64,000 bases of DNA from Candidatus Cloacimonadales bacterium (GCA_963662275.1 OY759316.1:4192001-4256000); one strand, 5' to 3'; shown: positions 32,252 to 43,739, numbered from the stretch's first letter. The notes: generated by a model from the sequence alone, not told the origin. Numbers and translations are program-made.

Positions 32252-35149
32252 ATGAAAAAGCTACTATGTAGAACAATTATGGGGATTGTTCTGGTACTTA
32301 GTGTGTCTGCATTAATGGCGGATTTCAGAACAATCGGGCCTGGGACAAATCATACAGGCAATTATGAACCATGGGGAAGCCAGGAAGGCTATCACCGATG
32401 TGCCCAGCTTTACTTAGCATCAGAACTTGGTAACATGGGTAGTATCACGACCTATGCATGCAATCCGCACTCAACCAAAGAGAGCATTGATATTCCTCTC
32501 AAAATTTACATGAAGATGACCACTGCGACTTCAATATCTGCTTCTGCTACGTTTAATTCTATGAAAACAGGAGCTACTCTTGTTTATACTGGAACGATAT
32601 TCGCAATTCATGGTGGAGAATGGAATTCGGTAACGTTAAATACACCATTTGATTACACCGGTGGAAATTTGTTGATAATAACAGAATCAAACTGTACCAG
32701 TTCCGGACATGCAAATGCGGTATATCATTTTACTACTTCAACAAACAGAAATTGGTATTATCGGGTAAACAATACTCCACCTACTGGTAACGAAACCGGT
32801 ACTCTCAATAGTAACCGTGCCGGTATCCAATTAGGCATCAATAACTTCCCTCCTGTACCCAATCCTGCTGTTGCCACAAATCCATTGCCTTCAGCAACGC
32901 TGATGGGACCTACTTTCAATTTCACATGGACAGCTCCAACTTCTGGTACACCTCCTTTGGGATATAAGGTTTATCTTGGAACAAATAATCCACCGACGAA
33001 CCTTGTATCTGGAACAGACTTGGGTAATGTTCTTTCTTATACCTATGGTTCTGCATTTAACGCAGGAACAACTTACTATTGGAAAATAATACCCTATAGC
33101 ATAGCCGGTGATTGCACAAGCGCTACCGTATGGAGCTTTTCAACGCAACCAGCAGTGACAGCTATTGCCACGAATCCAAGCCCTGCCAATGGGGCAGTCT
33201 CAGTATTGACAAATGCCTCTCTTTCCTGGGATGCTGTCGCCAATGCAACATCATATGATATCTATTATGGCAGTCCGATTTCAACAACACCTGTTGCCAC
33301 TGTGACAGGTACGAGCTGGACACCGCCTATAATGACGAATGACACTAATTATTCCTGGAAGATTGTACCAAAGAATGTTTTTGGTGCTACTTCCGGAACA
33401 CCTGAAGTGTGGTCATTTACATCTGTCGTTCCAGCACCGTTAGCAGCAGTACTAGTTTCTCCTGTGAATGGTGGTGTTGGTATATTAAAAGATGCATCTC
33501 TTGATTGGACACCAAATAGCAGTGGATATGCACCAACAGGTTATAATCTGTATTTTGGTACAAACTATCCACCAACCAACCTTGTCAATGGGACAGATAT
33601 CGGTAATGTAACAACATTCACACCAGGAACAGATTTGTTACCCGGAACAACCTATTATTGGGAAACAGTTCCTTACAATGCTGGTGGATCTTGTGCAGCA
33701 CCGACAATCGGTTCCTTTACCACAGAACAGGCTGTCACAGGCATTGCTGGAAATCCAAGTCCTACTGACGATGCAACTTCAGTAGCAACGGATGCAAGTC
33801 TTTACTGGGATGCAGTAGCCAATGCCACATCTTATGATGTCTATTTCGGCAGTCCGCTTTCCGAGACACCGGTTGCCACAGTAACCGGCACTTCCTGGAC
33901 ACCTCCGGCAATGGACAACGGCACAGCCTATTCTTGGAAGATCGTACCTAAAAACAGTTTCGGTGTTACTTCCGGTACCCCTGAAGTCTGGACATTTGAT
34001 ACAATCATCGCGGCACCTGAAGCCGTAGTACTGGTCAGTCCGGCGACTCCTGCAACAGACGTTGCAGATAACCCTACTTTTACCTGGACTCCTTCCGAGA
34101 CAGGTACCGCTCCGACTGGTTATAAGTTCTATTTTGGAACAGATAATCCGCCGACCAGCCTGATCGATGGAACAGACCTGGGCAATATCCTTACCTATAC
34201 ACCGGGTGCAGATTTATTACACGGCACTACCTATTACTGGGAAGTTGTTCCTTATAATGAAGGTGGAGATTGCCCTGCACCAACCTTTGGTTCCTTCACA
34301 ACAGAACAGGCTGTCACAGGCATTGCTGGAAATCCAAGTCCTACTGACGATGCAACTTCAGTAGCAACAGGTGCAAGTCTTTCCTGGGATGCAGTAGCCA
34401 ATGCCACAGCTTATGATGTCTATTTCGGCAGTCCGCTTTCCGAGACACCGGTTGCCACAGTAACCGGCACTTCCTGGACGCCTCCGGCAATGGACAACGG
34501 CACAGCCTATTCTTGGAAGATCGTTCCAAAGAACAGTTTTGGTGTTACTTCCGGTACACCTGAAGTCTGGACATTTGATACCATCATCGCGGCTCCGGCA
34601 CCTGTTATCCTGCTTACTCCAACAGAAGCAGCAACAGATATAGCACAAGTACCTACTTTCACTTGGACTCCTGCTGAAACAGGAACAGCTCCAACCGGTT
34701 ATAAGTTCTATATAGGAACTGATAATCCTCCCACAGATCTGGTAGAAGCCATAGACTTGGGTAATGTTCGAACATATACGTTAGGAACTGATTTATTACC
34801 CGCTACGACTTATTATTGGGAAGTTGTATCTTATAATGCAGGTGGAGAAGCTGTGGGGAGTACGATTAGCAGTTTCTCTACGGATGATACTGTTGGTCCC
34901 CCCTATTTAACAATTACACCTGATTATCCTGAAACTGATCAGATGAGTTCCGTTAATGTTACTGGTGCTCGCTTGGACTGGAATGTTGTTCGAGGAGCAA
35001 CTTCCTATAAAATCTACGCATCTGCTGATCCCTATTCAGATTTCAGTACCTGGACATTTCTTGCTGAAGTGCCCACAAATTACTATATCGATTCTGTAGA
35101 AGCTGGATTTAAATTCTATAGAGTCTCTTCAGTCTGTAGCAAAAAGTGA
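32252..35149 (+). CDS. Secreted Fn3/Ig-repeat surface protein, 965 aa, C-terminal FYRV domain
   Basis: Signal peptide; seven alternating GYKVYLGT..YYW and SYDVYFG..YSWKIVP modules; ends KFYRVSSVCSKK. Confidence 0.85.
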   Translation: MKKLLCRTIMGIVLVLSVSALMADFRTIGPGTNHTGNYEPWGSQEGYHRCAQLYLASELGNMGSITTYACNPHSTKESIDIPLKIYMKMTTATSISASATFNSMKTGATLVYTGTIFAIHGGEWNSVTLNTPFDYTGGNLLIITESNCTSSGHANAVYHFTTSTNRNWYYRVNNTPPTGNETGTLNSNRAGIQLGINNFPPVPNPAVATNPLPSATLMGPTFNFTWTAPTSGTPPLGYKVYLGTNNPPTNLVSGTDLGNVLSYTYGSAFNAGTTYYWKIIPYSIAGDCTSATVWSFSTQPAVTAIATNPSPANGAVSVLTNASLSWDAVANATSYDIYYGSPISTTPVATVTGTSWTPPIMTNDTNYSWKIVPKNVFGATSGTPEVWSFTSVVPAPLAAVLVSPVNGGVGILKDASLDWTPNSSGYAPTGYNLYFGTNYPPTNLVNGTDIGNVTTFTPGTDLLPGTTYYWETVPYNAGGSCAAPTIGSFTTEQAVTGIAGNPSPTDDATSVATDASLYWDAVANATSYDVYFGSPLSETPVATVTGTSWTPPAMDNGTAYSWKIVPKNSFGVTSGTPEVWTFDTIIAAPEAVVLVSPATPATDVADNPTFTWTPSETGTAPTGYKFYFGTDNPPTSLIDGTDLGNILTYTPGADLLHGTTYYWEVVPYNEGGDCPAPTFGSFTTEQAVTGIAGNPSPTDDATSVATGASLSWDAVANATAYDVYFGSPLSETPVATVTGTSWTPPAMDNGTAYSWKIVPKNSFGVTSGTPEVWTFDTIIAAPAPVILLTPTEAATDIAQVPTFTWTPAETGTAPTGYKFYIGTDNPPTDLVEAIDLGNVRTYTLGTDLLPATTYYWEVVSYNAGGEAVGSTISSFSTDDTVGPPYLTITPDYPETDQMSSVNVTGARLDWNVVRGATSYKIYASADPYSDFSTWTFLAEVPTNYYIDSVEAGFKFYRVSSVCSKK
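33722..34593 (+). repeat. Intragenic direct repeat, about 290 bp, offset 579 bp
   Basis: 33722-34014 is almost identical to 34301-34593. Confidence 0.9.
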
Positions 35150-35300: not shown

Positions 35301-35332
35301 AAAAAAAAGGACTCATCATAAATGATGAGTCC
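35301..35332 (-). terminator. Intrinsic terminator downstream of the tRNA
   Basis: GGACTCATCAT/ATGATGAGTCC with an A8 tract on the left. Confidence 0.8.
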
Positions 35333-35541: not shown

Positions 35542-35721
35542 CTAATAACGATTGTTGCTGCGGTAGCCACGGTTTTGGTTTTGTTGTTTTTTAGCACGTC
35601 TGCAGTCGTTACAACGCTGAGGTTCGTTTTCGAATCCTTTTTCTTTGTAGAAAGTTTGTTCGCCTTCTGTGAAGATAAATTCTTTGCCACAGTCTTTACA
35701 AACTAAGGTTTTGTCTGGCAT
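35542..35721 (-). CDS. Small zinc-ribbon protein (zf-trcl-like), 59 aa
   Basis: Not in ORF track. MPDKTLVCKDCGKEFIFTEGEQTFYKEKGFENEPQRCNDCRRAKK...; RBS AGGAG. Confidence 0.9.
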   Translation of the reverse strand: MPDKTLVCKDCGKEFIFTEGEQTFYKEKGFENEPQRCNDCRRAKKQQNQNRGYRSNNRY

Positions 35722-35865: not shown

Positions 35866-37821
35866 TTATTGGGAAGTAACTTCTTTACTTTTTCGTTCTC
35901 CATACTTCACTAGAAGCATCTCAAATACAAATAACAAAAGAACAGCAGCAAGCAGCCATTTCCATAATTCATAACCGAACCTGGTCTGTAGTATTTTATC
36001 CTGCCAGTTACGACCCAACAGTTTCAGATTTTGTCCTTTTATTGTTGTCATTGGCAGAAATGAACTTTCATCATATTCATGATTTACTGCAAGAGCGGTG
36101 TTTTTTCCATTTTTATCTTCCAAACCATAAATTCCTGGTTGAGCCAGGATATAGCGACTGTTATTCATTTCCAGTCTAGAACCATTGGGAAGTATGAGAT
36201 AAGAGGTTTGCACAGATTCGCCCAGTTTTTGAGCCGGTGACTGGAAATGGCTGTTCGACATGAATTGCAATGTGCGATAGGCAAAAACGGGAAAGCTGCT
36301 ATTCAGTAGAAAGCTATTTCGAATACTGCCAATATCGAATAACCAGAAGAAATCAGGATATTTGGTTACTGCGAAAGGTATATTACCATTTGCAAGTAAA
36401 GTAATGCTTTCACCAGAGGGCTTTGTGCTCCAGAAATCCGTTATTTGAATTTGGTTTTCAATATCTCGATTCAATAACGAAGTGACTGCATGATATTGAT
36501 TAATAAAAGTGACTGGGTTATTCTGTGTGTTAAAGGTATTCCATTTCAATCCGAACTCATTGCCTAAATAATTCTGCCAATCCGGGCTGAAGGTTTTATC
36601 TGCAATATAGAGAATCCCTTTTTTCTCTTGTTGCCAGTTTTGCAGCAATTGTCGCACTCGTGGAGTGAGTTCTTTGATATTGTAGACAATCAATAACGAT
36701 AAATCACTCATAGAAGTGATACTGGTTTGAGAAGGATTGATGTATTCAATTGCGGTAGCTTTTCCTGAATAAATCTGCAACATGGAGTATAAAGAAGGGG
36801 GCAATTGTTTTAAATCCGTGATTATTCCAATGTGCGGATTCAAATCAAAGTAAAAACTGAAATAAGAACGATTATCAGCAGGAAGTCTTTCATCCTGGAT
36901 TTCCACATAACCGCTATGCCAACCGGTGTTTTCGACTTGGATTGGAAAAGAGTCTACTTTCTTTTTCATAGAAGCAACGTCTGTGAATTTCTCCGAAATA
37001 GTTCTTCCATCCATATACAATCGGCACAACACATCAGTATGTATCTCTTTGGAATGATTCACAAGCTCAAATGAGATGGCGTTACTTATCTTCCGATTCA
37101 CAAGCTGTGCATCAGGTCTGGCATTCTGACAGCTCAGGTTTGACCAGTTCTCTAAATGCGAAGCAGGTATCAGGAAAACAGGATATTCATTCTTTGCTGG
37201 CAATTCCTGTTTTTGAGCATCAGTGATAATATAAATTTCCCGATTGGGCATCTGGCTTTGTGATAATTTATCCTGGGCTTCCTTGATCAGCTTAATATAA
37301 GATGTCGGTAGATAAGTGATTCCGATGTCTTCCATTTCCTTCAAAGGTAATTTTCCGAAATGAAGATTGCTATTCAGGCGATTCCATTTTTCATCAGAAG
37401 TCAGCAAGATCACGATATCCTGATCAGAAAGCAGTCCATTGATTTTGGAGATGATCTCTTTGCTTTTTTCCAGATTGGATTGAGTATCCACAAGGTAATC
37501 CATACTATAGGATGTATCCAGAATAATGGCAATTGCTGTTGGTGGATGCTGCGTCGAAGATTTCAGATAGGGTGATTTCAGGGTAGGTCTTGCCAAGGCA
37601 AGAATCGTAAATAGGATGATCATCATTCTAATAATCAGAAGAAGTATATTCAGCAGGTTGATTCTTTTGTTTTGTTTTTTCTGACTTGAAAGGATAAACC
37701 TGATTGAGCTGAACTCCACTCTTCTCGGTTTTTTCTTGGCAAAGAGATAGATCAGCAAGGGAATGATCGTAGCTGCTGCAACGGCAAGGACACTACTGTT
37801 CAGAAAAGATAAACCAAACAT
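35866..37821 (-). CDS. BatA-domain / vWA membrane protein
   Basis: IPLLIYLF..RVEFSSIRFI, LARP, MIDAS DTSYS, C-terminal ELWKWLL TM helix. Confidence 0.85.
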   Translation of the reverse strand: MFGLSFLNSSVLAVAAATIIPLLIYLFAKKKPRRVEFSSIRFILSSQKKQNKRINLLNILLLIIRMMIILFTILALARPTLKSPYLKSSTQHPPTAIAIILDTSYSMDYLVDTQSNLEKSKEIISKINGLLSDQDIVILLTSDEKWNRLNSNLHFGKLPLKEMEDIGITYLPTSYIKLIKEAQDKLSQSQMPNREIYIITDAQKQELPAKNEYPVFLIPASHLENWSNLSCQNARPDAQLVNRKISNAISFELVNHSKEIHTDVLCRLYMDGRTISEKFTDVASMKKKVDSFPIQVENTGWHSGYVEIQDERLPADNRSYFSFYFDLNPHIGIITDLKQLPPSLYSMLQIYSGKATAIEYINPSQTSITSMSDLSLLIVYNIKELTPRVRQLLQNWQQEKKGILYIADKTFSPDWQNYLGNEFGLKWNTFNTQNNPVTFINQYHAVTSLLNRDIENQIQITDFWSTKPSGESITLLANGNIPFAVTKYPDFFWLFDIGSIRNSFLLNSSFPVFAYRTLQFMSNSHFQSPAQKLGESVQTSYLILPNGSRLEMNNSRYILAQPGIYGLEDKNGKNTALAVNHEYDESSFLPMTTIKGQNLKLLGRNWQDKILQTRFGYELWKWLLAAVLLLFVFEMLLVKYGERKSKEVTSQ

Positions 37822-38841
37822 CTACATACTCAAACTGACAGAAATCAGATAGTTACATTGTTCAACCTTGAAGTTGGGTCCTACGATGGAAAAATCAATG
37901 CGAAAAGTCTTATAATAATAACCGGAACCGACACTATAGTATATTTTATCCTGTTGTGAGAAGTTATCACTATAAACTCCAGCCCTGAAACCAAGCATTT
38001 GTTTTTCCTGTGGTGTTCCTCCCACCTGAACATCTTTTACAATACCGAGATGATACGTTGTAATAGGGTCTTTCTCGAATGTCATCATCGCACCTGAAAG
38101 GATTTTGATATCTTCCTGTCCCACTTGAATACCCAAAGCACCACGTCGTGTAAGAGTTTTACTGCTTTCCGTCTGCCAGAACAAACCATTCAGGATATCA
38201 TAAAATGCCAAACCATAACTTGTTGACTCAGTTTTATATGCAAAGCCTAAGTCTGTAGATATACCTTTTACCTTATCATCGTTAAAATCTGTGAATGTTA
38301 AATTGATGTCATTCCTGCTGAGATAAACAAGTCTGCCATGAAGATATTTAACCGTAAGACCTGCAGCAAAGTTTTTATCTTTGTCTGAAGTGCCTCCAAA
38401 GGATATCTGCGCTTTTTGGAGTGTGTAATCATAGTATATTTTATCTCCGCTTGTATTCAATGATTCATTGATATGAATGTTTGAAACAGCCTGGTACATC
38501 ATTGCTCCAGTAGAGCTATTGATTACGATGGCAGAGAATTGATTGTTTCTCAGCAGACTACCGATTTGCATAAGTTGGTAGGGAGCAAATTCATCATTCC
38601 TCACAATAGAAAACGATGCTGCAACAGAAGTGGTTTTATTATATGCCAGTAACGCTGGATTATCATAGGAAATGTAATAATCACTCGTATCTGTAAGGTT
38701 TAATCCACCCATAGCTGTAACCAATGGAGACGGATTATGATCCGGTGTGTGGTAATCAAAGCGTTCAATCGGAAAGGCATTTAAAGCAAAAGCTGCAAGG
38801 CATAGCGATGCGATTAGGATGATCCTCATGATATTCCTCAT
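37822..38841 (-). CDS. Probable outer-membrane beta-barrel (PorV/FadL-like)
   Basis: Signal peptide, AMGG..SYDNPALLA, AGLTVKYL, DLGFAY, FRAGV, terminal strand; start uncertain (38829/38841/38889). Confidence 0.6.
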   Translation of the reverse strand: MRNIMRIILIASLCLAAFALNAFPIERFDYHTPDHNPSPLVTAMGGLNLTDTSDYYISYDNPALLAYNKTTSVAASFSIVRNDEFAPYQLMQIGSLLRNNQFSAIVINSSTGAMMYQAVSNIHINESLNTSGDKIYYDYTLQKAQISFGGTSDKDKNFAAGLTVKYLHGRLVYLSRNDINLTFTDFNDDKVKGISTDLGFAYKTESTSYGLAFYDILNGLFWQTESSKTLTRRGALGIQVGQEDIKILSGAMMTFEKDPITTYHLGIVKDVQVGGTPQEKQMLGFRAGVYSDNFSQQDKIYYSVGSGYYYKTFRIDFSIVGPNFKVEQCNYLISVSLSM

Positions 38842-38889
38842 TTTATTAGAAGAGCAGAACCGGCTGAACCCGGAGCTACATGTTCTCAT

Positions 38890-39786
38890 TTAATTAACTT
38901 CCTGTTGTGATACTTGATTCCTGGAAGCTACAGGCAATTTCTGATATAAATAAACACTGACAGGATAAAGGATAAGTGCTGTCAAAATTCCTGCAATTAC
39001 GTCAATAAAGTAATGATAATGGGCATGAACCGTAGAGAGACATAGCATTAGAGTGACGGGTATCATGCAATAGCCTACATATTTCACATAGCGAATTGCA
39101 GCAAGTGTAATGACGATTGATATCGCCACATGCGAACTGGGAAAAGCTCCTCCTAAATGAGGAGATTTGTTATAAATGAAAGCCATTATTCTAGTAAAAA
39201 TCCCATACTGATATGTCGTACTGGCTTGCATAGCCTCGGGATAAAATCTCCCACCAATGACAGGCAGCCATGAATAAATGAAGTAACAGAAATAAAAAAC
39301 GAAAGTGATTGCAAACAGTGTCTCATGAAAAGCGGTTCTTTTTTTGACATATAAATAAATGGGAATAGCTGCAATCATTAGATAATAGGAAAAATAGGAA
39401 AAATGAGATAGTTCCTGTATCAAATAACCGGAGTACATTTTCCCCCAAAGCAAAGCAGGCTGGAATCCGAATATAGCCTGGTCTATATTTTGGAAGAATG
39501 GATCAAGGAAATTACGAAAGATTATATGATTAACACTTGAGGTAGACTCAAAAAAATAACCGAAAAGAAAGATGGGATAAGCATAACGGATGAATCTTAA
39601 TAAAGTTGAAGAATATTGTTGTTCCATCCATATCACGAGCAGAATTCCCACACCTATGTTGAAATATCTGAGCAAATGGGTTAATGAAGATTCAGCTCTT
39701 GTCCAGCCTATACTCACATAAACCAGGTTCCACAAGATTAGGGCAAAGTTGAGATAATCAATTCCTATAAAGGCTTTTTTTCTCAT
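38890..39786 (-). CDS. PAP2-superfamily membrane phosphotransferase, Aur1/Ipt1-like
   Basis: IDQAIFG, FSYFSYY, GGAFPSSHVA, HYHYFIDVIAG. Confidence 0.8.
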   Translation of the reverse strand: MRKKAFIGIDYLNFALILWNLVYVSIGWTRAESSLTHLLRYFNIGVGILLVIWMEQQYSSTLLRFIRYAYPIFLFGYFFESTSSVNHIIFRNFLDPFFQNIDQAIFGFQPALLWGKMYSGYLIQELSHFSYFSYYLMIAAIPIYLYVKKRTAFHETLFAITFVFYFCYFIYSWLPVIGGRFYPEAMQASTTYQYGIFTRIMAFIYNKSPHLGGAFPSSHVAISIVITLAAIRYVKYVGYCMIPVTLMLCLSTVHAHYHYFIDVIAGILTALILYPVSVYLYQKLPVASRNQVSQQEVN

Positions 39787-40901
39787 ATCTTGCTATCTAA
39801 AATCCTGAATTTCTTATAGGCACGTGCCATTAAATCTACGGCAATCTGATTCATCATTGTATTTGTTTCCAATACCCATGAATATTCACCTTGGTAGAAG
39901 CCCTTTTTGTGACCATTGATGAAAGAATGATAGTAAAACATAATATCAATTCCTCGGTTCTGGAATTCTTTCACAACCCCCATTGTAAGAACTCTGGCTC
40001 TTCCCAGTTTCTTTGGGAAGAATTTCGTATAATACAACATCCAGAAAATACCTAGAGGAGTAATCCTGCCATTGAACTTCTTTAAGATAACATTATAGTC
40101 AGGCAGACCAACACAAAAACCTGCTGGTTTTCCATCCACTTCCGCAATGAATACCATCTCCGGATCAACGATCGGTAATAATGTTGCTACCAAATGATCA
40201 AATTCCTTCTTTGTCATTGGAACAAAGCCCCAGTTTCTTTCCCAGGCAGCCTGGTACACCGTGAAAACAGTTTCAATATCATGTTTCAAGTCTTTTTTAT
40301 TTAATGTCCTTATTGTGAAGGTGTTCTTTCTTTCGATCATTTTTGCCAATCTGATAAGTCTTTCAGGTACTTCCAATGTTTCAGTCAGCCAAGCATTGAG
40401 ATCCATTGCTTTCACAAATCCAGCTTTTTCTATAAGACCAAGGTAGTAGGGATGATTGTGAACCATCATGACAAAAGGAGGTGTGTCAAAACCTTCAATG
40501 AGAAGCCCACATTCATCATTGGTTGAAAGATTCATTGGTCCGCGGAGTGTATCCATCCCATGTTTGCAATTCCAATCCTTGGCTGTTTCTAATAAGGCAT
40601 CTGCCACTTTCTGATCATTGATGCATTCAAAGAAGCCAAAGAAGCCAACTTTGTCTTCATGGAATTTGTTATGCTGAGTATTGGTATGGGCAGAGATACG
40701 TCCTACGACTTTCCCCTTGCTGATAGCTAGGAATAATTGGACTTCTGAATGTTCATAGTAGGGATTTTCCAATGGATTGAAGTATTTCATTTGTTCAGAA
40801 ATCATGGGTGCAACCCAGTTGGGATCTTTCTTGTACAAGGAAAAAGGTAAGAGGATGAATTGTTTTAACTGCTGCTTTGTTGTTACGGGAATGATTTGCA
40901 T
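39783..40901 (-). CDS. Tandem-GNAT N-acyltransferase resembling bacterial ceramide synthase / YghO
   Basis: DPNWVAP, NPYYEH, VVGRISA, GFFGFFEC, GPMNLSTNDECGLLIEGFDTPP, NWGFVP, EYSWVLETN. Confidence 0.8.
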   Translation of the reverse strand: MQIIPVTTKQQLKQFILLPFSLYKKDPNWVAPMISEQMKYFNPLENPYYEHSEVQLFLAISKGKVVGRISAHTNTQHNKFHEDKVGFFGFFECINDQKVADALLETAKDWNCKHGMDTLRGPMNLSTNDECGLLIEGFDTPPFVMMVHNHPYYLGLIEKAGFVKAMDLNAWLTETLEVPERLIRLAKMIERKNTFTIRTLNKKDLKHDIETVFTVYQAAWERNWGFVPMTKKEFDHLVATLLPIVDPEMVFIAEVDGKPAGFCVGLPDYNVILKKFNGRITPLGIFWMLYYTKFFPKKLGRARVLTMGVVKEFQNRGIDIMFYYHSFINGHKKGFYQGEYSWVLETNTMMNQIAVDLMARAYKKFRILDSKI

Positions 40902-41524
40902 TAGATCTCTCCTAATCTTTTTGATACAAGGATATTCAAAGAGCCCATGATTAGGGCTGCGATTACTAATGGAAACGTTGGAATAGAAGTTAACGCTTCA
41001 CTTGTATGAGGGATAAATTGTCTGATAGACAAATTCACAAATGCCGGTAGGATGACAATCATGTACTGGCCAAAGCGAATTTGTTTAAAACCGAAGATCA
41101 CGATAAATGCACCAAGAACACTTAATGTCATAGGTAACCAGGCAAAAAATGCAACTAGTCCGATGTATGTGAAAATTCCTCGTCCACCTCTTAAGTGGTG
41201 AGTTAATGGCAAGCAATGTCCAATAAGGACGAAGATACCAAAAAGTACCATGTCATTAGTTTGAGTTAAGGGCTCAGCTATAAATCCTAGAGCAAATTTA
41301 AGGACTAATAAAAAAACATAAGTTTTAGCAACATCAATCGCTCCAACCAGAATGCCGAGTATTTTACTGACATTTGTATAGATGTTTTCTGTATCAGCCA
41401 GTCCACTACCGATTCTATCCAAGTTTAGATTTCGATAGGTACGGGCTATAAACCTGGATGTTGAAGCGCAGCCAAACAGATATGAAAGCAGACAAACACC
41501 GATTATAATTAGAACATTAATCAA
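40901..41524 (-). CDS. PlsY-like acyltransferase paralog with altered motifs
   Basis: SYLFG, GSG, DVAK, IGHCLP, RGGRG; canonical motif-1 Arg and motif-3 HxxNIxR absent; TTG start. Confidence 0.75.
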   Translation of the reverse strand: MINVLIIIGVCLLSYLFGCASTSRFIARTYRNLNLDRIGSGLADTENIYTNVSKILGILVGAIDVAKTYVFLLVLKFALGFIAEPLTQTNDMVLFGIFVLIGHCLPLTHHLRGGRGIFTYIGLVAFFAWLPMTLSVLGAFIVIFGFKQIRFGQYMIVILPAFVNLSIRQFIPHTSEALTSIPTFPLVIAALIMGSLNILVSKRLGEI

Positions 41525-42232
41525 TTATGCTCCTTTGCCATATTCACGTGGACCGAAGATTGCACTGCCAACTCGAATGATATTTGCACCTTCTTCAATA
41601 GCAATTTCAAAATCATCTGACATTCCCATAGATAGATAATCCATGTCAACATCAGAAATGTGTAAGGATTGAATTTCGTCAAAGAGGTTTTTCATTTTTT
41701 TAAAAAATGGTCTTACAATTTCAGGATCAGGACTGAATAAACCGATCGTCATCAAACCTCTGATATGGAGATGAGGTAGCCTGGCAATGCTTTTCACTAA
41801 CGATATTGTATCTTCTGGATTAATTCCACTTTTAGAAGTTTCTCCTGTGATATTGACCTCAATCAGGATATCTTGTTTCTTACCTAGCTTTTCTATACTC
41901 GTATTCAAGCTGGAAGCTAATTGCATTGAATCAATGGAATGAATCAGGATAGGGTTCAGTTTCATTAATTTGTTGATTTTATTGGATTGAAGATGACCGA
42001 TAAAATGAAATTCAGGATGTGGTTCTAATAAATAAGGAATCTTTGTTTCTGCTTCTTGGACTTTGTTTTCACCAATCGCTGTTATACCGGCATTGATTGC
42101 TTCCCTGATCATTTCTACTGGATGCGTTTTAGAAACAACGACCAGTTTGATATTATCTATACTCCTGCTACTTTTTTCAGCAGCTCTTTGTATTCTCTTG
42201 TTTACCATGAGTATATTCTGGGCAATTTCCAT
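41525..42232 (-). CDS. yggS: PLP homeostasis protein YggS/PROSC
   Basis: VVSKTH, GENKVQE, HFIGHLQSNK, LSMGMSDD, RVGSAIFG. Confidence 0.97.
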   Translation of the reverse strand: MEIAQNILMVNKRIQRAAEKSSRSIDNIKLVVVSKTHPVEMIREAINAGITAIGENKVQEAETKIPYLLEPHPEFHFIGHLQSNKINKLMKLNPILIHSIDSMQLASSLNTSIEKLGKKQDILIEVNITGETSKSGINPEDTISLVKSIARLPHLHIRGLMTIGLFSPDPEIVRPFFKKMKNLFDEIQSLHISDVDMDYLSMGMSDDFEIAIEEGANIIRVGSAIFGPREYGKGA

Positions 42233-42287
42233 TTTGCCTCCATTCAGATAATGCAAAAAAATGACATACTATGATGTCAAGTAATAC

Positions 42288-42386: not shown

Positions 42387-43739
42387 CTACTTTCCTATAC
42401 AGAATTCATTAAAGATTTGATGTAACAAATCATCGGTGCTGATGATACCGACTATTTCCTCAAGTGCATGGCTGGCTTCTTTCAAGTCAAAGGCTGTGAA
42501 TTCAAAACCCATTTCATCATCCAACGAAGTAATTGCCTGGTCAATTCCTTGAAGAGCTTTCTGGGCAGCATTGATTTGGCGAGTATTTGTTAATAAACCG
42601 GATTCAATGTTTGATTCTGAAATACGAATTTCTTCTAAAAGTGCTTCCTTTAAATCCAACATGCTTGATTCTGATAATGTGGAACAGGGAATAAATCCTT
42701 CTAAGCGCATTTGATTTAGTTCTGCATCAGAATACAGATCAGATTTATTAAAAACCGGAATAATCTTGGCTAAGCTCAAAACAGGGGTAAAATGATGATA
42801 ACTTGTTTGTTTTACTAGTGGAGAATCAGTGATATATAGAACGATATCGGCATCCTGTGTGATTTTAAGAGTTCTTTCAATTCCCTTTTTTTCAACTTGA
42901 TCATCTGTCGAACGCAAACCAGCCGTGTCAAAGAACCTGACAAGATAACCTTCCATAGAAATTGCTTCTTCCAAAAAGTCTCTTGTTGTACCTGGTACCG
43001 GTGTGACAATAGCACGTTCAGTTTTCAAAAAAGCATTGAAAATACTTGATTTTCCTACATTAGGCTCTCCTGTGAGAACCACTTTCAAGCCTTCCCTAAT
43101 TATCTTTCCCTGTCTTCCTGTCTCGATCAAATCAGAAAGTTCATTTCTAAATCCATGTAAATTCGTAGCCAGCCGAGTGAGATTTATCTCTGGCTGATCC
43201 TGTTCGAGGAAATCGATCTCCATTTCCAGTTGTTTCCGATAATATGTCAGTTCTTTTAACAGTGCTTTCAATCGATGAAAGAGACTTCCCTCCAATTGAT
43301 TCATAGCACTTCGGTGGGTCATTTTGGTTTGAGAGTGAATCAGATCGTTCACCGCTTCAGCTTTTGTTAGATCCATCTTATGATTGAGAAATGCTCTCAA
43401 CGTAAATTCACCCGGTTTAGCCATTCGGATTTGTTTCAGCAGGATTTCCATCATCAGATTGGCGATATACGGTGAGCCATGCCCTGAAATTTCAACTACG
43501 TCTTCCCCTGTATAACTGTGTGGTTGGCGATAGATCGTTATCATGACTTCATCAAGGATATCACCTTTATCAAGGAAATGAGCGAAGTGGACAGTATGAG
43601 AATGAACCTGTGTCAAATCGTACTTTGATTTGCATGATTTAGAGACAACTTCAAAAGCTTTTGGTCCACTAATGCGTAAAACAAAGATGCTGCTGATACC
43701 GCAGGGAGTAGCGAGGGCAACGATAGTATCATTCAACAT
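42387..43739 (-). CDS. mnmE: tRNA modification GTPase MnmE
   Basis: DTIVALAT, GEPNVGKSS, GTTRD, DTAG, NKSD, FCIGK. Confidence 0.98.
   Translation of the reverse strand: MLNDTIVALATPCGISSIFVLRISGPKAFEVVSKSCKSKYDLTQVHSHTVHFAHFLDKGDILDEVMITIYRQPHSYTGEDVVEISGHGSPYIANLMMEILLKQIRMAKPGEFTLRAFLNHKMDLTKAEAVNDLIHSQTKMTHRSAMNQLEGSLFHRLKALLKELTYYRKQLEMEIDFLEQDQPEINLTRLATNLHGFRNELSDLIETGRQGKIIREGLKVVLTGEPNVGKSSIFNAFLKTERAIVTPVPGTTRDFLEEAISMEGYLVRFFDTAGLRSTDDQVEKKGIERTLKITQDADIVLYITDSPLVKQTSYHHFTPVLSLAKIIPVFNKSDLYSDAELNQMRLEGFIPCSTLSESSMLDLKEALLEEIRISESNIESGLLTNTRQINAAQKALQGIDQAITSLDDEMGFEFTAFDLKEASHALEEIVGIISTDDLLHQIFNEFCIGK

Follow-up and report, generated by a model that had tools for sequence, protein, structure and literature searches.

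A row of six minus-strand genes in the genome of Candidatus Cloacimonadales bacterium probably supplies the late part of a phosphosphingolipid pathway, whose early part would come from genes at other sites of the genome. The row lies in a stretch of 64,000 nucleotides (the window; G000:C1:4192001-4256000 of the complete 4.38 Mb genome), and named homologues place it in Cloacimonadota. According to the listing of open reading frames (ORFs), it consists of abutting or overlapping genes for YggS, a PlsY-like protein, a GNAT acyltransferase, a PAP2 membrane protein, a beta-barrel protein, and a BatA-like protein. The operon is real and conserved, and it joins known enzyme families to an undescribed PlsY-family partner. 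Its reading as a phosphosphingolipid operon draws on homology, motifs, fold, synteny, and phyletic co-occurrence, and is well supported by computation only; the substrates and products named for the pathway are all ones that we infer.

Results

The GNAT protein is a candidate ceramide synthase

The GNAT gene (39783-40901, minus strand, 372 amino acids) encodes, as judged from its sequence, a candidate bacterial ceramide synthase of the YghO/bCerS family. Residues 8-372 aligned with residues 25-390 of E. coli YghO at 35% identity (E 6e-78), and residues 215-318 matched the GNAT domain PF00583 with 24.8 bits (cut-off 20.7). The bCerS motifs listed in the original prediction, VGRISA, GPMNLSTNDECGLLIEGFDTPP, and NWGFVP, were indeed found to align with VGRITA, GPFSLNINQESGLLIEGFDTPP, and NWGFVP of E. 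coli YghO. A scan of NCBIfam gave no family name for the GNAT or the PAP2 protein, and single-sequence searches of the PDB with either of them returned nothing useful.

The Caulobacter gene CC_1154 is one that we take to be CCNA_01212, namely bCerS. In PMC9386255, yghO (ECD_02850) and CC_1154 are described as 'aca' acyl-CoA N-acyltransferase genes required for dihydroceramide. The neighbours of yghO in E. coli BL21 are the gene for serine palmitoyltransferase (spt), an acyl carrier protein gene, an epimerase/dehydratase-family gene, and a fatty acyl-AMP ligase gene. Extra paralogues of lptF and lptG border this BL21 spt cluster (L020:2273-4419); according to the abstract of a 2026 preprint, sphingolipid transport in Caulobacter requires Lpt homologues.

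A quick maximum likelihood tree was calculated from 69 rows, which were all GNATs scoring above 180 bits in the 80 loci described below, two paralogues from the genome itself, and YghO. The tree was rooted at the midpoint, which is arbitrary, and its rows include no biochemically characterised bCerS. With 100% support in the Shimodaira-Hasegawa-like approximate likelihood ratio test (SH-aLRT), it split into a side of 56 rows and a side of 13 rows. The larger side contained YghO, the GNATs of Verrucomicrobiota Spt clusters, GNATs adjacent to CerR, and a 29-row clade of Cloacimonadota operon GNATs including that of the window, and the smaller side contained the second paralogue of the genome together with Bacteroidota GNATs that likewise lie beside PAP2 or Spt. 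The full-length homology with YghO and the grouping with GNATs of Spt and CerR clusters in this midpoint-rooted tree place the window GNAT in the bCerS/YghO family, as had been expected.

The second paralogue (384 amino acids; L015:1429-2583, minus strand, equivalent to G000:C1 ~3799393-3800547) stands alone beside a transposase-like ORF, and shares 29% identity with the window GNAT and 30% (156 bits) with YghO. The YghO/GNAT family is large, with 7647 matches among the 8000 candidates scored. Two irregular arrangements were observed in Cloacimonadota: two tandem GNAT genes at L033:6731-9067, the first of which is very divergent (branch 1.93), and a GNAT split into two ORFs at L028:5628-6761.

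The PAP2 protein is a candidate head-group transferase

The PAP2 gene (38890-39786, minus strand) encodes a membrane protein of 298 amino acids that matched PF14378 (PAP2_3) with 49.5 bits (cut-off 27) and PF01569 with 27.4 bits. A whole-library search gave 2196 representatives of the family at E ≤ 0.001. When 60 sequences were aligned, H219, H258, D262, P216, and S217 were invariant, and there was no K or R among the columns conserved at 90% or more. The lack of a conserved Lys or Arg indicates that the phosphatase C1 motif is missing from this family. Among PAP2 proteins, the absence of the C1 motif is generally regarded as a mark of transferases.

The motifs GAFPSSH and HYHYFIDV, likened to yeast Aur1 in the original prediction, align with GAFPSLH and HHYFVDL of that enzyme. 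The PAP2 profile matched yeast AUR1 (9vj3_A) with an E-value of 2.9e-5, positions 18-281 of the profile covering Aur1 48-316; PgpB, LpxE, and acid phosphatases matched the C-terminal motifs only. Furthermore, an AlphaFold model of the protein was obtained with a predicted local distance difference test score (pLDDT) of 94.9 and a predicted template modelling score (pTM) of 0.93. In a Foldseek search with this model, only inositol phosphorylceramide (IPC) synthase was reached at E ≤ 0.001, as 9vj4_A (E 1.5e-4, template modelling (TM) score 0.61/0.64) and 9ivc_A (3.4e-4). Taken together, profile, fold, and motifs agree on an Aur1-like protein, and suggest that the PAP2 protein is a candidate ceramide phospho-headgroup transferase of the Aur1/IPC-synthase type. 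A bacterial Aur1 homologue, BT_1522, has previously been shown to function as the phosphatidylinositol (PI)-dihydroceramide synthase of B. thetaiotaomicron, and its deletion abolishes PI-dihydroceramide. A literature search for PAP2 enzymes in bacterial sphingolipid synthesis returned BT_1522 only.

Spt-like and CerR-like genes are encoded outside the window

The original prediction had suggested that homologues of serine palmitoyltransferase and CerR be sought in the genome, and both were found outside the window. Among 14 aminotransferase-class matches, the three that were alpha-oxoamine-synthase-like were scanned, giving one Spt-like protein and two Kbl. The Spt-like protein (G000 ~2.70 Mb, 2701226-2702404) scored 587.7 bits with NF047600, the next family reaching 410 (178 bits less), and is 39% identical to BL21 Spt. 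The CerR-like gene (G000 ~1.05 Mb, 1047939-1048907) encodes a 323-residue epimerase-family protein, which is the best match to the BL21 reductase (79 bits, 27% identity) and, with 140-197 bits, to the CerR-like ORFs of the clusters in other phyla as well.

The surroundings of the two genes were also recorded. An AI-2E family transporter gene precedes the Spt-like gene, which begins 13 bases later, and a convergent gene for a DedA/VTT-domain membrane protein comes next (L113:3135-6069, equivalent to G000:C1 ~2700134-2703068). The CerR-like gene shares 28 bases with the gene downstream of it, which encodes a protein of 577 amino acids (L112:3731-6408, minus strand, equivalent to G000:C1 ~1046230-1048907); this protein has a hydrophobic, signal-peptide-like N-terminus and matches no Pfam family. 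About 1.3 kb beyond it, on the other strand, lies a gene for an AMP-binding (acyl-activating) enzyme.

Subsequently, 151 Cloacimonadota genomes, including the present one, were surveyed. The GNAT family was found in 132 genomes (E ≤ 1e-25), the CerR-like gene in 127 (E ≤ 1e-45), the Spt-like gene in 121 (E ≤ 1e-120), and the PAP2 gene in 101 (E ≤ 1e-20). A CerR-like survey at E ≤ 1e-70 (43/151) was discarded because the threshold cut through the scores of orthologues, many of which were between 1e-60 and 1e-70. Tallies by family and genus agreed for all four queries (f12 0/6, g20 0/6, g2 0/2). By hand cross-tabulation, the same 19 genomes, most of them 96-100% complete, lack all four genes, and GNAT is present in every Spt-positive and every PAP2-positive genome. 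Spt accompanies PAP2 in 94 of the 101 PAP2-positive genomes; 27 Spt-positive genomes, including all those of family f13, are without PAP2. As the genomes are interrelated, these counts are descriptive only.

The PAP2 subfamily lies among ceramide genes in other phyla

Species genomes were scanned with the PAP2 alignment, and the best 80 of at least 598 confirmed matches, all obtained via one motif pattern, were taken as loci: 31 of the Cloacimonadota type and 49 from other phyla (L056-L104), namely Verrucomicrobiota, Bacteroidota, delta-proteobacteria, Planctomycetota, and Lentisphaeria. Neighbours within 3 kb of PAP2 were labelled by BLASTP. In the Cloacimonadota-type loci, the PlsY-like gene was present in 30/31 (the remaining locus is cut by a contig end), the operon-type GNAT in 29/31, BatA-like in 28/31, YggS in 26/31, and the barrel in 21/31; Spt, CerR-like, and second-type GNAT genes were each present in 0/31. 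With PlsY-like in 30, GNAT in 29, barrel in 21, and BatA-like in 28 of these loci, the row is not a chance arrangement, and the synteny that had been anticipated is conserved.

In the 49 loci of other phyla, none had the PlsY-like, barrel, BatA-like, or YggS gene. The operon-type GNAT was found near PAP2 in 25 of them, the second type in 12, and any GNAT in 37 (29/31 for the Cloacimonadota type); Spt was found in 18 and a CerR-like gene in 25. At least one of Spt, CerR-like, and GNAT was a neighbour in 44/49 loci (29/31 for the Cloacimonadota type), and all three in 13/49 (0/31). No further neighbour family occurred in more than six of the 49 loci. These counts tie the PAP2 subfamily to the three ceramide genes, and the PlsY-like protein and the barrel are additions restricted to the Cloacimonadota-type loci of the sample.

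Two of the 31 Cloacimonadota-type loci (L043 and L048) are on contigs of metagenome-assembled genomes (MAGs) labelled Armatimonadota, and their GNATs are nested in the Cloacimonadota clade; a contig labelled Bifidobacterium (L079) groups with Akkermansia and Verrucomicrobiota. These Armatimonadota and Bifidobacterium labels are probably binning or labelling errors. A MAG labelled Akkermansia muciniphila (L104, 9848-12008) carries a pair of PAP2 and bCerS-like GNAT genes.

The PlsY-like protein has a conserved but altered acceptor site

The PlsY-like gene (40901-41524, minus strand, TTG start) encodes 207 amino acids that matched PF02660 above the cut-off (73.4 bits) and TIGR00023 below it (43.3 bits, cut-off 137.2). 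A canonical PlsY (183.8 bits) and PlsX are present elsewhere in the genome. Against Aquifex PlsY (5xj5), the PlsY-like protein scored 24 bits versus 117 bits for the canonical genomic PlsY.

Residues were mapped using the definitions of the acyl-phosphate hole and the glycerol-3-phosphate (G3P) pocket given in PMC5700162. The 'phosphate hole' for acyl-phosphate, with His92 and the GG(K/R)G loop, is kept; its residues H103 and G113-G114-R-G116 do not vary among orthologues. In the G3P pocket (Ser35, Arg45, Lys104, Asn180, Ser142, and His177), Ser35 is retained as Ser or Thr, Lys104 has become Arg, Arg45 T/S/C/M, and Ser142 Gln, and the segment with His177 and Asn180 is replaced. Asn37 and Thr41 have changed too; Asn42 is kept. 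The replacement residues are conserved in orthologues of 45-71% identity (GTGLADTEN, KQIRFAQY, and VSKRLGE), which suggests a constrained new site.

A search with this protein gave 234 homologues at E ≤ 0.001, and every named one among the 120 listed was from Cloacimonadota. An ESM Atlas search gave PF02660 clusters only, the first being from Cloacimonadota. In loci that have lost the operon GNAT (several genomes of genus g6, L037, and L045), the PlsY-like gene directly abuts PAP2. Fusions of the two, suspected from open frames of 413-562 amino acids, turned out to be overlapping frames. A predicted complex of the two proteins scored 0.00, which is no answer and counts neither way.

From these sequence comparisons, the protein is a Cloacimonadota-specific divergent paralogue that probably still binds acyl-phosphate and no longer binds free G3P. 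By inference only, it would depend on acyl-phosphate, use a new acceptor, and work in concert with the PAP2 step. A more specific version is tentative and rather doubtful: the enzyme would acylate a sphingolipid-linked acceptor from acyl-phosphate, for example the free hydroxyl group of a phosphoglycerol or phosphoinositol that the Aur1-like enzyme has just attached to ceramide, giving a three-chain phosphosphingolipid that the FadL-like barrel hands to the outer membrane. If this holds, the PlsY family would gain its first member with a non-G3P acceptor, and sphingolipid synthesis its first step that depends on acyl-phosphate.

Barrel, YggS, and BatA-like neighbours

The barrel gene occupies 37822-38889 on the minus strand, with a likely start at M21 (38829) followed by a signal peptide. 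No family model was reached in NCBIfam (PorV_fam 29.4 bits, cut-off 90; BamG 18.5, cut-off 250). Orthologues with a start codon (n = 20) have, by eye, hydrophobic, signal-peptide-like N-termini. The predicted model (pLDDT 84.2) gave TbuX, BamG, CymD, FadL, and PorV as the top Foldseek matches (E 7e-9 to 8e-8, TM 0.5-0.58), and the protein is predicted to be an outer-membrane beta-barrel of the FadL/BamG/PorV kind. It may pass lipid into the outer membrane, and the predicted fold fits a BamG- or PorV-like role equally.

The yggS gene is the first gene of the row; its ORF spans 41525-42256 on the minus strand (TTG at 42256), with a likely ATG start at 42232. The product matched TIGR00044, the pyridoxal phosphate-binding YggS family, with 213.4 bits (cut-off 106.25). 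In 27 of the 31 Cloacimonadota-type loci it precedes the PlsY-like gene; the remaining four are cut by a contig end. The BatA-like gene (35866-37821, minus strand) encodes an N-terminal double-transmembrane domain and a VWA domain (PF07584, 58.7 bits; TIGR02226, 59.4 bits). It is a conserved downstream neighbour, following the operon in 28/31 Cloacimonadota-type loci and in 0/49 others.

Boundaries and surroundings of the row

The junctions were as originally described: 41525/41524, 38890/38889, and 37822/37821 abut, base 40901 is shared by the GNAT and PlsY-like genes, and 39783-39786 is a four-base overlap of the GNAT and PAP2 genes. Downstream of the row on the minus strand, the sole long-stem terminator-like site was a GC hairpin at 35309-35332 with a 10-pair stem and T runs on both strands; the other sites listed by the terminator scan had stems of 5-6 pairs. 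This hairpin is likely to be the 3' end of the minus-strand unit, past batA and a gene for a zinc-ribbon protein of 59 amino acids (35542-35721, minus strand; PF13451 zf_Tbcl, 88.9 bits), with which the unit may end.

Just downstream of the row and convergent with it lies a plus-strand gene (32252-35149) for a secreted protein of 965 amino acids with many near-identical repeats of ~90 residues, with motifs such as GTTYYWxxxPYN and SWDAVANATSYD. Upstream, mnmE (42387-43739, minus strand) adjoins yggS here; its place in at least 19 further loci of Cloacimonadota is ~1.8 kb downstream of batA, and the differing positions indicate local rearrangement.

Discussion

The proposed pathway would begin with the Spt-like enzyme (~2.70 Mb), which would make a keto-sphingoid base. 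The window GNAT would then N-acylate this base, and the CerR-like reductase (~1.05 Mb) would reduce the acylated product. With its His-His-Asp site, the Aur1-like PAP2 protein would transfer a phospho-alcohol head group from a glycerophospholipid to the C1 hydroxyl group of ceramide, with release of diacylglycerol. The PlsY-like protein would acylate an acceptor other than G3P that is connected with the PAP2 step, such as a glycerol or inositol head group or ceramide itself, and the FadL-like barrel may pass the lipid into the outer membrane.

Several points weigh against this interpretation. The GNAT was compared with YghO, which is only a literature-named homologue of the experimentally characterised Caulobacter bCerS and forms a long, unresolved branch in the quick midpoint-rooted tree. 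Relatives of the second paralogue adjoin PAP2 or Spt in Bacteroidota, so that either paralogue could be the ceramide synthase. The operon GNAT is missing from a subset of genus g6 and from loci L037 and L045, in which the PlsY-like and PAP2 genes remain; it is dispensable there and presumably replaced by the second paralogue type. The Spt-like protein is under the NF047600 cut-off (587.7 versus 640 bits), and the Spt-like and CerR-like genes lie 1.5 Mb and 3.2 Mb, respectively, from the operon. Seven of the 101 PAP2-positive genomes lack Spt at E ≤ 1e-120, two of which (G036 and G067) are 99-100% complete. Since the sample comprises the 80 nearest PAP2 relatives obtained via one motif pattern, the neighbour counts apply to it only. 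No RNA data were found among the sequencing runs. Finally, no PI synthase was found in the genome, the sole CDP-alcohol transferase being PgsA.

Because PI synthase was not found, the head-group donor may be phosphatidylglycerol (PG) rather than PI. A phosphatidylserine decarboxylase (Psd) was also searched for in the genome, and none was found. Myo-inositol-phosphate synthase (MIPS) is present. Its gene is directly followed by a gene of the CDP-glycerol glycerophosphotransferase family (PF04464; L109:145-2580, minus strand, equivalent to G000:C1 ~1177460-1179895), and this pair may point to a polymer of inositol phosphate or to another route to inositol lipids. The candidates for the head group are phosphoglycerol, derived from PG, and phosphoinositol, derived by another route, with no choice between them.

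Other explanations of the row were also considered. The PAP2 protein might be a lipid phosphate phosphatase, of the PgpB, LpxE, or undecaprenyl pyrophosphate (C55-PP) phosphatase type or acting on ceramide-1-phosphate, in a row that remodels envelope lipids. B. subtilis PgpB does give the best PDB E-value of the profile (1.2e-6), LpxE and E. coli PgpB match too, LpxE is the third structural match of the model, and PF01569 is matched as stated above. However, the alignments with these phosphatases are confined to the C-terminal C2/C3 part (profile 204-287), and Aur1 covers nearly the whole profile. The absence of conserved Lys or Arg for a C1 motif, the fold match at E ≤ 0.001 to IPC synthase alone, and the ceramide genes beside PAP2 in 44 of the 49 loci of other phyla also make a phosphatase quite unlikely. 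We regard it as very unlikely that the product of the GNAT and its partners is an N-acyl lipid of a non-sphingoid kind, for instance an N-acyl amino acid or a different aminolipid, and that the likeness to bCerS reflects a shared acyltransferase family only. The very large size of that family, the two paralogue types, and the lack of an NCBIfam name would allow such a product, but the GNAT family, Spt-like, and CerR-like genes are present or missing together across the 151 genomes, and Spt-CerR-PAP2 clusters encode GNATs that fall on the window protein's side of the tree split.

The remaining alternative concerns the other members of the row, and is unlikely as a whole: the PlsY-like protein would be simply a second G3P acyltransferase or an inactive relic, and YggS, the barrel, and BatA would be neighbours by conserved gene order only. 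The score with PF02660 agrees with the former, and the occurrence of YggS, the barrel, and BatA in none of the 49 clusters of other phyla, together with the absence of the barrel from 10 of the 31 Cloacimonadota-type loci, agrees with the latter. Nevertheless, most residues of the G3P pocket are replaced by conserved ones in a genome that also has a canonical PlsY, and the PlsY-like gene stays beside PAP2 even without the GNAT. The phosphosphingolipid operon remains our preferred reading, in the form given by the original prediction with two exceptions: the GNAT, the PAP2 protein, the Spt-like gene elsewhere, and the synteny were supported by computation, and two auxiliary roles were not. A supporting role of YggS for serine palmitoyltransferase found no evidence of a link, YggS being absent from all 49 clusters of other phyla, and lipid export by the barrel is a guess based on its fold only.

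The original prediction had also held sphingolipids to be undescribed for this lineage, which needs correction. In Ding et al. 2024, 33 Cloacimonadota MAGs with Spt-like genes are reported, and Cloacimonadota are already predicted to make sphingolipids. The same text states that no bCerS or CerR lies near these genes and leaves open whether they have moved or been replaced, although its supplements may list matches. In a term search of that text, PAP2, inositol, phosphoglycerol, and phosphoethanolamine were absent, and five mentions of 'headgroup' were all general. A search of the available literature for Cloacimonadota together with sphingolipids returned only this article and its preprint. 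The present results locate bCerS and CerR candidates in Cloacimonadota, which travel with Spt across the phylum, and add a candidate head-group transferase. Cloacimonadota are uncultured, and knowledge of their likely membrane lipids would help assign environmental sphingolipids to their producers.

Comparison with known systems

The window GNAT resembles the bCerS/'aca' proteins (Caulobacter CC_1154 and YghO) in full-length homology, motif blocks, the GNAT domain, and co-occurrence with Spt and a CerR-like reductase. It differs from them in that it is not adjacent to spt or cerR, is in an operon with the PlsY-like and PAP2 genes, and has a second paralogue type in the genome. The Spt-CerR-PAP2-GNAT clusters of Verrucomicrobiota, Bacteroidota, and others contain homologous PAP2, GNAT, Spt, and CerR-like genes, but no PlsY-like, barrel, YggS, or BatA gene (0/49), whereas Spt and CerR-like genes are dispersed in Cloacimonadota.

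Yeast Aur1 (PDB 9vj3, 9vj4, and 9ivc) shares with the window PAP2 protein the PAP2_3 family, the His/His/Asp residues in GAFPS-H and H-Y-x-x-D, and the lack of a C1 Lys/Arg; it aligns with the profile over the full length and is the best structural match. The identity is, however, ~15%, and no partner like Kei1 is known for the window protein. BT_1522, set beside the window PAP2 by description, is a bacterial precedent for the activity; by that description it lies among inositol-lipid genes, whereas the window subfamily lies among ceramide genes. The barrel is likened to FadL, TbuX, TodX, BamG, and PorV by its predicted barrel with a signal peptide and by these being its best structural matches, but the TM scores are just 0.5-0.58 and it is shorter (335 versus 360-430 residues). 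Its fold does not separate a lipid channel (FadL) from a subunit of a protein machine (BamG and PorV).

Compared with Aquifex PlsY (5xj5), the operon copy retains the family, the length, His92, the GGxG loop, and Asn42, but Arg45, Ser142, His177, Asn180, Asn37, and Thr41 are replaced, Lys104 is Arg, and the TIGR00023 score is below the cut-off. This PlsY-like partner, the part of the row without a described counterpart, offers a way into new lipid chemistry that can be tested.

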